DNA from: an uncultured Bacteroidales bacterium
GTDB lineage: Bacteria > Bacteroidota > Bacteroidia > Bacteroidales > VadinHA17
DNA: 64,000 nucleotides
Direction: 5' to 3'
Assembly (NCBI GenBank): GCA_963840965.1
Contig: CAWJAW010000003.1
Location: 269,714-333,713 of the forward strand
Positions 44,836-53,773 of this stretch are shown one piece after another; the first letter of the stretch is position 1, and each line of letters opens with the position of its first letter. The translations under genes were made by a program, and so were the position numbers. Below the pieces are notes generated by a model. It did no database searches and was not told where the DNA came from. It was given only the letters and a program-made list of their open reading frames with translations.

Positions 44836-44858
44836 AAGGGTCCCTTGTGGGGACCCTT
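44836..44858 (-). terminator. hairpin upstream of pheA (candidate attenuator terminator or initiation-region structure)
   Basis: Minus strand reads AAGGGTCCC-cacaa-GGGACCCTT then CCTGTTTTAAAAAG. The stem is 9 bp, the U-run is only 4 nt, and it ends 21 nt before the pheA ATG. Confidence 0.45.
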
Positions 44859-44896
44859 GCTTGCATATGTTGTTTTTTATGTATACAAAAATCCCC

Positions 44897-44962
44897 TTAT
44901 CTCTTTTTAAAATAAAAAAAGAAGTAAAAATAAGAGGTGATATAATTGTATACAATATTCAT
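44897..44962 (-). CDS. putative Phe/Tyr leader peptide MNIVYNYITSYFYFFFYFKKR
   Basis: Hand-translated 21-codon ORF with 5 Phe and 5 Tyr codons. Residues 11-18 are YFYFFFYF. The stop lies 38 nt before the hairpin. Confidence 0.6.
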   Translation of the reverse strand: MNIVYNYITSYFYFFFYFKKR

Positions 44963-44982
44963 TTTTTCGTTTTATTGGCTTA

Positions 44983-44990
44983 CAAAATTA
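44983..44990 (-). promoter_or_regulatory. TAATTTTG, a candidate -7 box for the aromatic operon leader
   Basis: Perfect TAnnTTTG, 20 nt upstream of the leader ATG. Confidence 0.4.
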
Positions 44991-45029: not shown

Positions 45030-45089
45030 GTTGAAAAAAGTAAAGAAGAAGACCCCTGCCTGCATGCTGGCGCAGCCAGTCAGGCAGGG
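45030..45089 (-). terminator. compound hairpin plus T-rich tail ending the his operon
   Basis: CCCTGCCTG...CAGGCAGGG with inner CTGGC/GCCAG. It is followed on the minus strand by GTCTTCTTCTTTACTTTTTT. Confidence 0.55.
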
Positions 45090-45254
45090 AAGGCCGAAGA
45101 CCGAAGACGGAAGAAGTTATGCCAGTTTTGCCAGTTCTGCGGGTTCTGCCGGTCGTTTATCATCACGGATGGTAGCTGAAAGCTCTGCGCCCTGTGCTCT
45201 GCGCCCTGTGCTCTGCGCCCTGAGCCCTGAGCCCTGAGCCTTGCGCCTTGCGCC
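45089..45254. repeat. composite short-tandem-repeat block in the his operon 3-prime region
   Basis: In order: (GAAGRCC-type heptamer)x4, (TGCCRGTTY nonamer)x4, (CTCTGCGCCCTGTG 14-mer)x2.5, (GCCCTGA)x3, (GCCTTGC)x2. The block runs up to the hisIE stop codon. Confidence 0.85.
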
Positions 45255-45851
45255 TTATTTCCCCTTATGCCGTTCTCTCAGTACTTCTTCAACATCTTCA
45301 AAAGCAACATTCTTCTTTTTCAGAAGAATAAGAAAATGGTATAACAGATCCGCCGCTTCATTTTTGAACAGGTCGATATTGTCATCCTTGGCTTCAATGA
45401 CCAGTTCCACTGCTTCTTCACCCACTTTCTGAGCTACTTTGTTTATTCCCTTTTTGAAGAGTTTGTTAGTGTAGGAACCTTCTGCATTGCCATCAATTCG
45501 TTTACTGATTATATCTTCAAGGTGGTAGACAAAGCCTTTTGAAACCTCCTCACCAAAGCACGAAAGACGTCCGGTGTGACAGACAGGTCCTGCCGGATCG
45601 ACCATGACAAGCAGGGCGTCATTGTCGCAGTCTGTTGTTATTTCTTTAACAGTAAGGAAGTTGCCAGATGTCTCCCCCTTGGTCCATAACCGGTTTTTAC
45701 TGCGGCTGAAGAAAGTGACCTTACCTTCCCTGACGGTCTGATCATAAGCCTCTTCATTCATGTAACCGACCATAAGTACCTGTAGCGAATTGTTGTCCTG
45801 GATTATTGCCGGAACAAGTCCGTCCCCTTTTTTGAAGTCAATGTTTATCAT
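45255..45851 (-). CDS. hisIE: bifunctional phosphoribosyl-AMP cyclohydrolase / phosphoribosyl-ATP diphosphatase
   Basis: HisI motifs (CDNDALL, GPVCHTG) followed by a HisE helical domain. Confidence 0.9.
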   Translation of the reverse strand: MINIDFKKGDGLVPAIIQDNNSLQVLMVGYMNEEAYDQTVREGKVTFFSRSKNRLWTKGETSGNFLTVKEITTDCDNDALLVMVDPAGPVCHTGRLSCFGEEVSKGFVYHLEDIISKRIDGNAEGSYTNKLFKKGINKVAQKVGEEAVELVIEAKDDNIDLFKNEAADLLYHFLILLKKKNVAFEDVEEVLRERHKGK

Positions 45852-50081: not shown

Positions 50082-51357
50082 GAGATTTTAGTCTTATTGT
50101 CACTGCATTGGCATGTCCCTTTAGCTGTTCAGCTTCTGCCATCTTTTCAATCACCGGTCCCAGATTCCGGATACCTTCCTGATCGATTTTCTGGAATGTT
50201 ATTTTTTTCACAAACGATTCGGCCGATACTCCGCCATAGCTTCTTGCAAATCCTGCTGTAGGCAATGTGTGATTAGTGCCTGATGCATAATCACCAGCAC
50301 TCTCGCAGCTGTATTTTCCAAGGAACACCGAACCGGCAGAAGTGACCTTTCCGGCAAGTCTGTCAGGATCAGAGGTAGATATTATAAGGTGCTCGGGGGC
50401 ATAAAGATTGCTGAACTCAATGCATTCATCAGTCGAACTGAAAAGAATTGACAGGCTGTTTTCAAGGGCTCTGAGGGCAATATCCTTTCTTGGAAGGAGC
50501 ATCGCCTGCCTTTGGGTTTCGGCCAGTACCTTTTCAGTGATTCCTTCCGAATCGGTCAGAAGTATTACCTGGCTGTCGGTTCCGTGCTCTGCCTGCGAAA
50601 GGAGATCCGAGGCAACAAAGGAAGGATCAGAATCGCTATCCGCGATGATGAGCACTTCACTTGGACCGGCAGGAATATCTATTGCCGTACCCTCAAGCTG
50701 AAGCAAAGCTTTTGCCATGGTTACATATTGGTTGCCAGGACCAAATATCTTATCGACTTTTAGAATTGTTTCTGTTCCTAAGGCCATGGCTGCGATTGCC
50801 TGGGCTCCTCCAGCCCTGTAGATCTGAGTCACGCCTGCCATCTTTGCAGAGTATAATATAAGGGGATTGATATTGCCGTTCCTGTCGGGGGGAGTACACA
50901 GTATGATCTCGGGGCATCCTGCAATGCGGGCGGGGACAGCAAGCATCAGTACCGTTGAAAAGAGCGGTGCTGTTCCTCCGGGGATGTATAATCCGACACG
51001 GTCGATTGGTACACTCTTTCTCCAGCACCTCACCCCCCTGGTTGTCTCAGTTACCGGTTCTTCACGTAGTTGGACCGAATGGAACCTGGTGATATTTTCC
51101 AGGGCGACAGCTATAGCCTCTTTAAGTTCCTCTGTCACAAGGCTGGCTGAGGCTTCAATCTCGGATTCCGGAACTTTCAGGTCCCTTGGTCTGACACCGT
51201 CGAATTTCTCAGCCAGATCACTTAGGGCCCTGTCTCCATCTTCCCTGACATTCTTAATTATTTCAGCCACTTGGTTCCGGAGTTCATGCCTGTTGATCTC
51301 CGGCCGCCGGCATAGTTCCTGCCACCGGCTTCTTTCGGGGAATGAAATCACCTGCAT
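50068..51357 (-). CDS. hisD: histidinol dehydrogenase
   Basis: 429 aa with the SQAEHG motif. Confidence 0.9.
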   Translation of the reverse strand: MQVISFPERSRWQELCRRPEINRHELRNQVAEIIKNVREDGDRALSDLAEKFDGVRPRDLKVPESEIEASASLVTEELKEAIAVALENITRFHSVQLREEPVTETTRGVRCWRKSVPIDRVGLYIPGGTAPLFSTVLMLAVPARIAGCPEIILCTPPDRNGNINPLILYSAKMAGVTQIYRAGGAQAIAAMALGTETILKVDKIFGPGNQYVTMAKALLQLEGTAIDIPAGPSEVLIIADSDSDPSFVASDLLSQAEHGTDSQVILLTDSEGITEKVLAETQRQAMLLPRKDIALRALENSLSILFSSTDECIEFSNLYAPEHLIISTSDPDRLAGKVTSAGSVFLGKYSCESAGDYASGTNHTLPTAGFARSYGGVSAESFVKKITFQKIDQEGIRNLGPVIEKMAEAEQLKGHANAVTIRLKSLEND

Positions 51358-52214
51358 TACAAAATCATTTTTTCGATTGGTATTACAAGTATTCCCTGTG
51401 CACCCGCAATCCTTAACTGATCAATCCTTTCCCAGAATTCATCCTCCTTGACTACGGAGTGGATGCTGCACCAGCCCTTTTCCTCGAGGGGAAGGATGGT
51501 GGGGCTTTTCATGCCCGGAAGTATCTTGCAGATCTCATGCAATGATTCCAGCGGTGCATTCAGAAGAATGTACTTGTTTTCCCTGGCGTTTCTTACTGAC
51601 CTGATCCTGAACAACAGTTTCTCGAGGATATTCTTTTTATCCTGATCAAGGTTTCTGTTTGCTATTATAACTGCCTGACTTTTCAGAAGGACTTCCACCT
51701 CCTTAAGTCCGTTAGTCATAAGGGTGCTTCCGGAGCTTACAATGTCGCAGACGGCTTCGGCCAAACCTATCCCCGGTGCAATTTCAACGCTTCCGCTGAT
51801 CTCTTCAGTAGTTGCCGTCAGATTATTCTCCGCCAGGTAAAGGTTAAGAAGCCTGGGATAGCTGGTTGCCACCTTTTTATTCATGAACCATCCCGGACCT
51901 GTGTACGATTCCTCTTTCGGGATTGCAAGGCTCAATCGGCATTGCGCAAATCCCAGCTGCTCAAGAATTTCCACGTCCCTGTTTTTTTCAAACACTATGT
52001 TTTCGCCGAGGATGCCTATGTCGGCAACCTGTTGTTCGACATACTGGGGGATGTCGTCATCCCGGAGAAACAGAATATCGACAGGGAAGTTTGAAGCACT
52101 TGTCTTGAGGACATCGGTGCCGTTTGAGAATTTGATTCCGCATTCCTGCAGCAGTTTGTGAGAGTTTTCACTAAGCCTTCCCTTTTTCTGGATGGCAATT
52201 TTCAGCCTGTTCAT
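51357..52214 (-). CDS. hisG: ATP phosphoribosyltransferase, long form
   Basis: 285 aa with LKIAIQKKGRL and DIVSSGSTL motifs and a C-terminal regulatory domain. Confidence 0.9.
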   Translation of the reverse strand: MNRLKIAIQKKGRLSENSHKLLQECGIKFSNGTDVLKTSASNFPVDILFLRDDDIPQYVEQQVADIGILGENIVFEKNRDVEILEQLGFAQCRLSLAIPKEESYTGPGWFMNKKVATSYPRLLNLYLAENNLTATTEEISGSVEIAPGIGLAEAVCDIVSSGSTLMTNGLKEVEVLLKSQAVIIANRNLDQDKKNILEKLLFRIRSVRNARENKYILLNAPLESLHEICKILPGMKSPTILPLEEKGWCSIHSVVKEDEFWERIDQLRIAGAQGILVIPIEKMIL

Positions 52215-52247
52215 TTCATTATGGTTTTTTGTCGGGGCATATCGCCG

Positions 52248-52285
52248 GAAAAATAAAAACCCGTCTGATATGCTCAGACGGGTTA
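52248..52285 (-). terminator. intrinsic terminator / candidate His attenuator
   Basis: Minus strand reads AACCCGTCTGA-gcata-TCAGACGGGTTTTTATTTTT. It ends 35 nt before the hisG ATG. Confidence 0.7.
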
Positions 52286-52313
52286 TGATATTTTGATACT
52301 ATTACATATCACT

Positions 52314-52370
52314 TTCATTTCGCCTGAGTGCAGGAGAAAAAATGGTGATGATGTAATTTAATTGATGTCA
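52314..52370 (-). CDS. putative His leader peptide MTSIKLHHHHFFSCTQAK
   Basis: Hand-translated 18-codon ORF with four consecutive His codons (CAT CAT CAC CAT). Its stop lies 28 nt before the terminator stem. Confidence 0.65.
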
Positions 52371-52389
52371 TTTGTTTATAATCTGAAGG

Positions 52390-52397
52390 CAAATATA
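52390..52397 (-). promoter_or_regulatory. TATATTTG, a candidate -7 box for the his operon leader
   Basis: Perfect TAnnTTTG, 19 nt upstream of the leader ATG. Confidence 0.4.
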
Positions 52398-52440
52398 CGA
52401 TTTTTTTAATAATTATCATCATTTCGGTAAAAATCTATTT

Positions 52441-52698
52441 CGCCCCATACGGGGCTTAACGGGTAGTGTGGTTATGCACAACGGGGCGTTGCCCCGCCCT
52501 AAATCATGGCGCCCCTACGGGACTTTTAGTACGAGATGATTTCTGCAAAACGAGTTGCCACCATCTCAGAATCATTGCTTCCCACAGGGGCTGGATTAGT
52601 GATTCGGGCAAGATAAGGCCGTAGGCCGAATAATGATCTAGGGATGGGCGCAGCCCGTCCTTAATGGCCACTCAAGATCCTGGAGCCCCGTAGGGGCG
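52441..52698 (-). repeat. mosaic multi-hairpin repeat, copy B (inverted relative to copy A)
   Basis: The reverse complement aligns end to end with 14624-14884. It lies between the leuB stop and the his promoter. Confidence 0.85.
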
Positions 52699-52711
52699 TC
52701 ATAAAACCCTG

Positions 52712-53773
52712 TTATACCAGATCAGCCACAAGATCGCCAACCTCGGTGGTTGAATATCCCATCTTACCGGCGCCAAGATCTTTCAATTTGCTGGCCGTCA
52801 CATCCATGATTGCATTCTCGATAGCCTGAGCTGCTTTTGCTTCCCCCAGCTGCTCCAGCATCATGCCGCCACAGGCAATTGCTGCAAGCGGATTTATTAC
52901 ATTCATTCCTGTATATTTCGGTGCAGATCCGCCAATAGGCTCGAACATCGAGACTCCTTCAGGATTAATGTTCCCTCCTGCTGCGATCCCCATGCCGCCC
53001 TGGGTTATAGCTCCGAGGTCGGTGATAATGTCTCCGAACATGTTTGTCGTCACAATGACATCGAACCATTCGGGGTTCTTGATCATCCACATGCAGGTGG
53101 CATCGACATGGTAATATTCCCTAAGGATATCGGGATAATCGGCTTGTCCCATTTCATGAAATGCTCTTTCCCAGAGGTCAAAAACATAGGTCAGTACATT
53201 TGTCTTTCCGCAAAGGGCAAGCGTCTTCCTTTTATTTCTTTTTCTTGTAAATTCAAAAGCATACCTCAGACATCTGTCGACAAGAAAACGGTTGTAAACC
53301 ATATTTTGCATTGCAACCTCATGCGCTGTACCCTTCATGGTTACCCCGCCGCTTCCGGTGTAGACATCTCCGGTGTTTTCTCTTACAACTACATAGTCAA
53401 TATGTTCGGGACCTTTGTCTTTAAGCGGAGTGGAAACGCCGGGATACAGTTTTATAGGCCTCAGATTAATATACTGATCAAGTTCAAACCTCAGCCTGAG
53501 AAGAATTCCCTTTTCCAGAATTCCGGGTTTCACATCCGGATGACCGATTGCCCCAAGGAAAATTGAGTCAAATTTCCGGAGTTCCTCGGTGGCTGAATCG
53601 GGCAGGATCTCGCCTGTCCTGAGATATCGGTCGCCTCCGAAATCAAATTCCTCAAAATTGAGATTAAATCCGTATTTACCTGCCGCTGCGCCAAGCACTT
53701 TCCTGCCTTCTCTCACCACTTCCGGTCCTGTTCCGTCACCGGGGATGGATGCAATATTGTATGTCCTGTTCAT
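52712..53773 (-). CDS. leuB: 3-isopropylmalate dehydrogenase
   Basis: 353 aa with [13 protein letters not shown] and NMFGDIITD motifs. Confidence 0.9.

Follow-up and report, generated by a model that had tools for sequence, protein, structure and literature searches.

In a 64-kb stretch of contig CAWJAW010000003.1, from an uncultured Bacteroidales lineage (the whole stretch is referred to below as the window), the histidine genes form an operon in the order hisG-D-C-B-H-A-F-IE, running from position 52214 down to 45255 on the minus strand. All eight genes scored above the NCBIfam curated cut-offs, and hisB is bifunctional. Upstream lie leuB and a citramalate/isopropylmalate synthase gene. The element under study is the hisG leader, located between these genes and the operon, which comprises a promoter box, a short open reading frame (ORF) with a run of His codons, and an intrinsic terminator. 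The nearest genome records are uncultured Bacteroidales metagenome-assembled genomes (MAGs) labelled 'Rikenellaceae', from digesters, fens and sediments.

Direct reading of the sequence confirmed the parts listed in an original prediction for this region, namely an 18-codon ORF with four consecutive His codons, a TAnnTTTG box and a terminator before hisG (Table 1). The coordinates given there were one base off, the ATG having been placed at 52370 and the TGA at 52314-52316. As expected for an attenuator, the tandem codons upstream of hisGDCBHAF-IE, four in a row, are for the operon's own amino acid, and the leader ORF is separated from the first structural gene by the terminator, the T-run of which ends (52249) 34 nucleotides (nt) short of the hisG ATG (52214). 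This terminator consists of 11 bp, 6 of them G-C, closed by a 5-nt loop, with a predicted energy of −18.3 kcal/mol. In the window, the G of the promoter box stands 18 nt before the leader ATG; with transcription starting at the predicted position, the 5′ untranslated region (UTR) would be about 13 nt long, A-rich and devoid of a Shine-Dalgarno sequence.

Table 1. Features of the hisG leader in the window, in order of transcription (MFE, minimum free energy)
Feature	Position	Strand	Basis or remark
Bacteroidota -7 promoter box TATATTTG (TAnnTTTG)	52390..52397	minus	direct reading of sequence
Predicted transcription start	52383..52385	minus	placed by analogy with the F. psychrophilum homologue (start 5-6 nt past the TATATTTG box)
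Leader ORF MTSIKLHHHHFFSCTQAK plus TGA stop, 18 codons	52315..52371	minus	ATG 52371..52369, TGA 52317..52315
Segment 1 AUUACAUCAUCAC, overlapping the His codons; 5′ strand of P1 (putative anti-antiterminator or pause hairpin)	52345..52357	minus	MFE structure
Putative regulatory His codons CAT CAT CAC CAT	52342..52353	minus	sole CAYx4 run in window
Segment 2a CUCAGGCG, last codons of leader ORF; 5′ strand of outer antiterminator helix, mimics terminator 3′ arm	52321..52328	minus	partner CGUCUGAG 52273..52280
Segment 2b GUGAUAUGUAAU, 3′ strand of P1 or else 5′ strand of inner antiterminator helix	52301..52312	minus	pairing in A1 and A2
Segment 3a AAUAUCAU, 3′ strand of inner antiterminator helix (UGAUAU:AUAUCA)	52285..52292	minus	pairing in A1 and A2
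Intrinsic terminator AACCCGTCTGA-gcata-TCAGACGGGTT	52258..52284	minus	5′ arm 52274-52284, loop 52269-52273, 3′ arm 52258-52268
Terminator T-run TTTTTATTTTT	52249..52259	minus	direct reading
Segment 5 GAUAUGCCCCGAC, after the T-run; complementary to terminator apex 52267-52279 (P5)	52231..52243	minus	11/13 positions pair in window
hisG (ATP phosphoribosyltransferase), first gene of the operon	51357..52214	minus	NCBIfam match above curated cut-off

For comparison, a close set of 80 hisG loci was assembled (HisG identity 76-99%), and 76 loci were aligned (alignment A1). Since the HisG homologue search yielded close relatives only, distant taxa were reached via a 50%-representative search and then a second genome scan with a HisG representative at 62% identity, which provided a distant set of 80 loci. 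A second alignment, A2, extends A1 by 14 sequences of this RNA type, contributed by Flavobacterium, Saprospiraceae, Proteiniphilum and Lentimicrobiaceae.

Comparative alignment of the hisG upstream regions, one of the checks named with the original prediction, revealed a His-run ORF (13-21 codons, at least three His, 120-170 nt before hisG) in 75 of the 80 close loci. The five exceptions comprise a contig end, an N-masked stretch, two loci whose A-run is one base shorter, and one degenerate leader (HQH). The leader measures 13-21 codons in 75 of 76 loci and contains 3-7 His residues, encoded by CAT (293 instances) and CAC (37) with no other codon in use. An ATG opens into the CAY run in the correct frame in 66 of 77 loci, as opposed to 9 and 2 for the other two frames. 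The residues N-terminal to the His run vary freely, their number and frame being kept.

In the two loci with the shorter A-run (L013 and L074), ATGAATCAATT is found where L012 has ATGAAATCAATT, and the leader ATG does not share the frame of the His run, which would be read as Ile-Ile-Ile-Ile instead. We did not take this frame shift as biology: the difference lies in an A-run one base shorter (ATGAATC as opposed to ATGAAATC in L012), and both are long-read MAGs from the same project. A homopolymer-length error is the likeliest cause.

When the whole window was scanned for short ORFs combining an amino-acid run with a promoter box or a terminator, only this ORF, accompanied by two in-frame variants with upstream ATGs, and one Phe/Tyr-rich ORF before pheA were returned. 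The sequence CAYCAYCAYCAY was seen once in the window, versus 0.11 occurrences expected. The longer in-frame ORF beginning at 52422 or 52419 (MMIIIKK...) was discarded, as it contains the promoter box and its upstream ATG is limited to about 10 of 80 loci.

The TAnnTTTG box was present in 70 of the 76 aligned orthologues, 18 nt 5′ of the leader ATG in 54 of them, and its T20, T21 and G22 are invariant in A1. Further upstream (52398-52440, minus strand), the window and its orthologues share a conserved TTATTAA block 8-9 nt from the -7 box. Ahead of this block stand (T)TTG, about 21 nt upstream, and a T-run, giving the consensus TTTTT....tattTTgTgaTAaTTATTAAtttttt..TATCTTTG, with AAATG in the window where others have TTTG. 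The block may be just a -33 element with its AT-rich spacer; alternatively, a factor may bind here.

Folding of the leader RNA, also among the checks named beforehand, gave a z score of −6.06 relative to dinucleotide shuffles. In the MFE structure of the naked RNA, segments 1 and 2b form a helix, P1 (AUUACAU-C-AUCAC with GUGAU-AUGUAAU), in which the His codons are paired with GUGAUAUG of segment 2b; P1 is thus a codon-containing preclusive hairpin. The rival structure is an antiterminator made of two helices, an outer one (CUCAGGCG:CGUCUGAG) that engages the 5′ arm of the terminator and an inner one (UGAUAU:AUAUCA) nested within it.

The blocks involved are those that stand out in A1: the CAY run, CUCAGGCGAG, RUGAUAUG, AAUAUCAUAA and ACCCGUCUGAG-loop-CAGRCGGGU-U6. 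Paired cells amounted to 95.9% (A1) and 93.5% (A2) for the terminator, 96.9% (A1) and 92% (A2, versus 27-48% when slid) for the outer antiterminator helix, and 92.5% (A1) and 84.5% (A2) for the inner one. The core of P1 (ACAU-C-AUCAC with GUGAU-AUGU) was paired in 94% of cells in A1, and P1 in 84.4% in A2, versus 13-50% for slid controls. Overall, the four helices had 84-97% of their cells paired, compared with 13-59% in slid controls (13-52% in A2). Locus L143 offers a compensatory change across the alternative structures, where a C-G pair became U-A: segment 2a shows C->U, the terminator 5′ arm G->A and the 3′ arm C->U at the corresponding position.

This scheme differs in part from that of the original prediction, which envisaged three mutually complementary segments. 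All three exist in the window, and the pairing between TGATATG and AATATCA, corresponding to the inner antiterminator helix, is conserved. The third, a CATATCA in the terminator loop, occurs only in the window's close relatives; we rejected it as part of the mechanism, given that most orthologues carry GCAGA or GUAAA at this place. The main antiterminator helix and the pairing between the His codons and GUGAUAUG had both been missed.

In place of full-length folding, which was uninformative, we took the nascent RNA only as far as the terminator 5′ arm extends and folded it with or without a ribosome footprint. The naked nascent RNA of the window adopted P1, a small hairpin concealing 2a (−18.9 kcal/mol). 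When a footprint was centred on any of the four His codons, the two-helix antiterminator formed instead (−17.6 kcal/mol), while a footprint at the stop codon left no structure and the terminator 5′ arm free. Across the 76 orthologues, the mean pairing probability of the terminator 5′ arm was 0.82 with the ribosome stalled, 0.27 with the ribosome at the stop codon and 0.45 for naked RNA, and the stalled value exceeded the stop value in 76 out of 76, which is the computed behavior of an antiterminator. A companion run limited to one stall position gave an observed mean of 0.85 versus 0.53 for a dinucleotide-shuffled spacer, only 4% of the shuffles reaching 0.8 or more. The position of the stop codon fits these preferences in both leader length classes, since a terminating ribosome would cover 2a in each: 13-codon leaders stop just before CUCAGGCG and 17-21-codon leaders just after it.

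On this basis, the element is very probably a ribosome-mediated leader-peptide transcription attenuator, which sets transcription of the his operon according to the supply of charged tRNA-His. Conservation, maintained pairing and ribosome-constrained folding all favor the hisL-like attenuator upstream of hisG that had been proposed originally. What the analysis shows is the parts of the leader, their conservation, the upkeep of pairing and the folds preferred under ribosome masks; translation of the leader, the site of transcription start, coupling between ribosome and polymerase, and a response to histidine are inferred.

The switch would operate as follows. Transcription would begin a few bases past the TATATTTG box, and the 18-codon leader would be translated from its A-rich 5′ UTR of about 13 nt. 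When His-tRNA is plentiful, the ribosome would reach the UGA and cover both 2a (CUCAGGCG) and 2b (GUGAUAUG), allowing the terminator arms to pair and the polymerase to halt at the U-run. With no ribosome on the leader, segment 1, containing the His codons, would pair with 2b while the small inner hairpin hides 2a, and termination would again ensue. When His-tRNA is scarce, a ribosome stalled on CAU CAU CAC CAU would free 2a and 2b, the former pairing with the terminator 5′ arm (CGUCUGAG) and the latter with AUAUCA; the resulting two-helix antiterminator would permit read-through into hisG.

Some observations weigh against this interpretation. When the whole leader was folded at equilibrium under ribosome masks, the terminator always formed, as a kinetic switch would lead one to expect; the model consequently depends on kinetics that could not be computed here. 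In about 40% of orthologues, the sequestration predicted for the terminator 5′ arm exceeded 0.5 even with the RNA naked, so that the branch in which the absence of a ribosome leads to termination is less uniformly supported. The terminator and the outer antiterminator helix show few true compensatory changes (1-3 pairs), and because the sequences of these helices are so highly conserved, the case for them rests mainly on maintained pairing rather than covariation. We know of no demonstration of ribosome-polymerase coupling in Bacteroidota. Finally, the organism belongs to an uncultured MAG lineage, in which the attenuator is a computational prediction.

A further conserved segment, segment 5 (consensus GGUYUGCUCAGAC), lies between the U-run and hisG. 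Its partner in helix P5 runs from the distal 5′ arm of the terminator through the loop into the 3′ arm, of which it includes the first two bases. No other helix of the element covaries as well as P5. In A1, 84% of its cells were paired (20-37% when slid), 7 of the 13 pairs were double-changed and 23 cells were compensatory, values that 0 of 500 shuffles reached. In A2, double changes affected 9 of the 13 pairs and 0 of 500 shuffles matched the observed data on any of five measures; one position in the loop occurs as AU (11), GU (11), GC (7) and UA (4). G-U combinations outnumbered A-C by 104 to 48 (about 2:1), which points to an RNA on this strand and disfavors a DNA-level palindrome or operator, a role that we had also considered for segment 5. 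Such a covarying post-terminator helix appears to be new, and lends the element some novelty.

Segment 5 follows the U-run and is made too late to influence whether the polymerase transcribing it terminates. It may have another target: many relatives (e.g., L024, L082, L097 and L116), but not the window, have a hisG start, AUGAGYAAACU, that looks like the terminator apex, CUGAGYAAAYC, and in many family members segment 5 is complementary to both. A possible if doubtful extension of the attenuation model, which would add to it and not replace it, is that segment 5 also gates hisG translation or mRNA fate. Leaked transcripts, in which the terminator is folded, would leave segment 5 free to pair with the hisG start region in those many relatives, whereas antiterminated transcripts would expose the apex, which would capture segment 5 in P5 and keep the start codon open.

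P5, the covariation of which agrees with such a second layer, is strong only in the ACCCGUCUGAG RNA type, and segment 5 is missing altogether from 15 of the 76 close orthologues. The P5 3′ end lies a median of 15 nt before the hisG AUG, compared with a median of 20 nt for the terminator end in the 15 loci that have no segment 5. On average, P5 is weaker than the terminator (−11.4 vs −15.3 kcal/mol).

Pairing with the hisG start was assessed on 99 distinct loci. Segment 5 and hisG nt 2-11 were paired in 86.3% of cells, compared with 21-36% when slid, and 36 of these loci showed ten contiguous pairs. However, when segment 5 was permuted among loci, pairing remained at 84.1 ± 0.4%, implying that covariation beyond conservation is small, in sequences that are phylogenetically related. 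Segment 5 also pairs fairly well with later hisG coding windows (−7.5 vs −8.8 kcal/mol). On the other hand, the segment-5 variant ACUCAG, with 23 occurrences, is always opposite AGU in hisG, never AGC, and in the tabulated loci it is opposite GAGU in the apex as well; in other words, the A at this position appears only where hisG and apex both have U.

The predicted probability that the AUG region is unpaired was 0.30 where 8 or more contiguous pairs were present (16 close loci), versus 0.52 in loci without such pairing. Shuffling segment 5, by contrast, barely altered the predicted accessibility of the initiation region (0.60 vs 0.57), and we discarded the idea that segment 5 is a general insulator of that region. 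Such pairing is absent between segment 5 of the window and its own hisG start (AUGAACAGGCUG; runs of 0-2 pairs), and the window's clade has the P5 half only.

The case for segment 5 gating hisG translation through the state of the apex, buried in the terminator or exposed, is suggestive, not strong. In a fuller version, which strikes us as rather unlikely, the hisG leader of Bacteroidota would work with five segments instead of the four of a classical attenuator. Formation of P5 or, in many lineages, pairing of segment 5 with the hisG start codon and codons 2-4, mimicked by the apex, would give the read-through mRNA a memory of its origin and provide a second, translational layer. Were it true, antiterminated transcripts would keep the start codon open and leaky ones would sequester it, an arrangement that would suit a phylum initiating without Shine-Dalgarno pairing. 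P5 and the mimicry of the start codon in relatives amount to a testable hint of an added translational layer.

A possible precedent is the trp leader of B. subtilis, where a hairpin in read-through transcripts bound by TRAP occludes the ribosome-binding site of trpE, so that re-pairing of the leader in read-through mRNA controls translation of the first gene besides attenuation. That system is protein-mediated and sequesters a Shine-Dalgarno sequence, whereas here the target would be the start codon itself, and the pairing is not evident in the window sequence.

The distribution of the leader among more distant relatives bears on a different explanation, namely a translation-independent RNA switch in which a protein, a tRNA or a metabolite binds the leader and the His run is merely part of a helix. 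The His codons do lie within P1, and constraint on the nucleotides could mimic codon conservation. However, a His-rich leader ORF was found in 65 of the 80 distant Bacteroidota/Ignavibacteria loci, from Lentimicrobiaceae, Prolixibacteraceae, Marinilabiliaceae, Proteiniphilum, Paludibacter-like bacteria, Flavobacterium, Saprospiraceae, Phocaeicola and Ignavibacteria/'Chlorobiota' MAGs, among others. In all 65, a hairpin with a U-run follows 25-53 nt downstream, the terminators being of three unrelated sequence types (ACCCGUCUGAG, GGUUUGCAG and GGCUUACC). His-run ORFs therefore persist before hisG in lineages with unrelated leader RNAs and terminators, and a constant His-codon ORF amid changing RNA sequence is what ribosome sensing predicts, unlike a ligand-binding RNA. 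The strong preference for the in-frame ATG, the use of CAT and CAC only, and a stop codon that would always bring the terminating ribosome over 2a, in 13-codon and 17-21-codon leaders alike, also argue for translation. When positions 51900-52800 were scanned against Rfam at E<=10, no T-box or riboswitch match was obtained. We consider a translation-independent switch very unlikely.

Even less probable is a functional His-rich micropeptide, for example a metal-binding one, next to a hairpin that is an ordinary terminator or stabilizer. The C-terminal HTCSQAR is fairly conserved as a peptide, but it coincides exactly with the RNA strands CUUGC and CUCAGGCG of the alternative structures, and in short-leader loci the same nucleotides, lying past the stop codon, are equally conserved; the freedom of the N-terminal residues speaks against it too. 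Moreover, the element is tied to hisG. An exact-pattern genome scan (TCAGGCGAG-N28-58-ACCCGTCTGAG) gave at least 120 matches; among the matches listed, 112 had hisG directly downstream, 4 were cut by a contig end and 4 were others, that is, 112 of 116 evaluable matches.

The hisG leader element was present in at least about 200 fetched Bacteroidota species genomes, and conservation of the arrangement, which extends to well over 200 genomes, refutes chance coincidence, i.e., a terminator belonging to the upstream leu genes (leuB ends 340 nt upstream on the same strand) next to a random His-run ORF. The conserved promoter box between leuB and the ORF and a CAYx4 run found exactly once in the window, here, also speak against it. 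The ribosome-mediated attenuator remains the reading that we adopt.

Two side observations were made in these scans. Four loci with leader-pattern matches (L182, L185, L206 and L260) had no His ORF or hisG downstream; they include a 225-nt contig of a Streptomyces assembly and a Chloroflexia-binned contig, and are likely chance matches or cases of contamination or mis-binning. In five others (L087, L099, L101, L109 and L141), tandem His-rich leader ORFs, each with its own terminator, precede a single hisG, such as MNLQFVHTVHHHHHHVGTGIVCKIL followed by MNQKHHHIHHHSSEKHTRQKIL; these look like tandem attenuators.

A homologue of the element has been described in Flavobacterium psychrophilum, where a 129-nt 5′ segment upstream of hisG is annotated as transcript segment THC0290_N_0824 (Guérin et al. 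2021, ISME Commun, PMC9723704, Table S7 and SI D9). Its transcription start site was mapped 14 nt before the leader ATG, downstream of the TATATTTG box, so that in this homologue transcription starts upstream of the mini-ORF, a point on which the original prediction had proposed to be judged. The F. psychrophilum his operon shows condition-specific read-through, with maximal expression in minimal medium (PMC9723704). The same work also notes the Bacteroidetes Trp leader of Rfam and candidate ilvE, pheA and trpE leaders. The original prediction was hence right in assuming that the class had already been predicted in this phylum, but its description of it as experimentally unexplored is out of date, given the mapped start, the 5′ transcript and the read-through data of the homologue (PMC9723704). 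In the literature searched, we found no mutational or starvation experiment on a Bacteroidota his attenuator.

The F. psychrophilum element, from a member of the Flavobacteriales, and that of the window, from an uncultured Bacteroidales lineage, belong to the same RNA family. Their leader peptides read MSLNQLHHHHFHICSQAKC and MTSIKLHHHHFFSCTQAK, respectively, and besides the TATATTTG box they share the A-rich 5′ UTR, UUACAUCAUCAUCAU, CUCAGGCGA, GUG(A/G)UAUG and ACCCGU(C/U)UGAG-loop-CA(G/A)ACGGG. In an alignment of four leaders including that of F. psychrophilum, mean column identity was 71% and all functional blocks were common. The published annotation consists of the ORF and a single MFE fold, with no alternative pairings and no post-terminator segment, the transcript segment ending at the terminator (PMC9723704). 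The element of the window is thus a member of a known Bacteroidota hisG leader family and of a known attenuator class, to which the present analysis adds the corrected pairing scheme and P5.

Like enterobacterial hisL (RF00514), the window's leader combines a short His-run ORF with pause, antiterminator and terminator hairpins that exclude one another, all placed before hisG. The two have no detectable homology in sequence or structure, though: the Rfam 15 covariance scan of 51900-52800 at E<=10 gave no His_leader (RF00514) match, and the best matches, ncr1575 (28 bits, threshold 60) and Trp_leader (21.5 bits, threshold 41), as well as the trpB motif, were sub-threshold, driven by the terminator, and were dismissed. 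Unlike hisL, whose leader has seven His codons, that of the window has four, lacks a Shine-Dalgarno sequence, would follow a 5′ UTR of about 13 nt, and is associated with an antiterminator of two nested helices and an extra segment past the U-run.

Other leader-peptide attenuators of this Shine-Dalgarno-poor phylum, i.e., Bacteroid-trp (Rfam, Weinberg 2010) and the candidate F. psychrophilum ilvE, pheA and trpE leaders, sense other amino acids and are unrelated in RNA sequence. The predicted His-codon ORFs with terminator/antiterminator structures of Firmicutes (bacilli hisZ/hisS paralogues; Naville & Gautheret 2010, PMC2965389; Ashniev et al. 2022, PMC9413887) are independent sequence families from hosts that do use Shine-Dalgarno initiation.

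As a histidine attenuator, the element adds little, considering that the mechanism is textbook, that leader-peptide attenuators of the phylum are known and that a homologue is annotated. A comparative study by Vitreschak and co-workers (2004) is said to list, in its abstract, candidate attenuators in Bacteroidetes/Chlorobi. Besides the hint that P5 provides, the practical value of the element lies in two respects. The family is unmodelled in Rfam 15, and alignments A1 and A2 could serve as the starting point of a model, with which annotation pipelines would no longer label this region as intergenic. The leader also represents a compact system for probing ribosome-polymerase coupling and attenuation in bacteria that initiate without Shine-Dalgarno pairing.

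The Phe/Tyr-rich ORF returned by the window scan belongs to a second candidate leader-peptide attenuator, located directly after the his operon (44836-44990, minus strand) and before pheA (prephenate dehydratase, ATG 44814). Its parts are a box, TAATTTTG (44990..44983), the ORF MNIVYNYITSYFYFFFYFKKR (ATG 44962), and the hairpin AAGGGTCCC-cacaa-GGGACCCTT, to which a short T-run is joined. In F. psychrophilum, pheA has a candidate leader of comparable type, likewise rich in Phe/Tyr (PMC9723704).

The 300-nt spacer between leuB and the his promoter (52440-52700, minus strand) contains several GC-rich short inverted repeats (such as GCCCC-tac-GGGGC, GGGGC-aac-GCCCC and GCCCC-gta-TGGGGC), and CCCCNNNNGGGG occurs in 4 copies in the window versus 1.2 expected; the spacer repeats may be leu terminators or REP-like (repetitive extragenic palindromic) elements. 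Directly 3′ of hisIE (45089-45256), short tandem repeats form a cluster, with periods of 7 and 14 nt at 45181-45256 (consensus AGCTCTGCGCCCTG, about 5 copies), 9-nt repeats at 45116-45153 and 7-nt repeats at 45089-45114.

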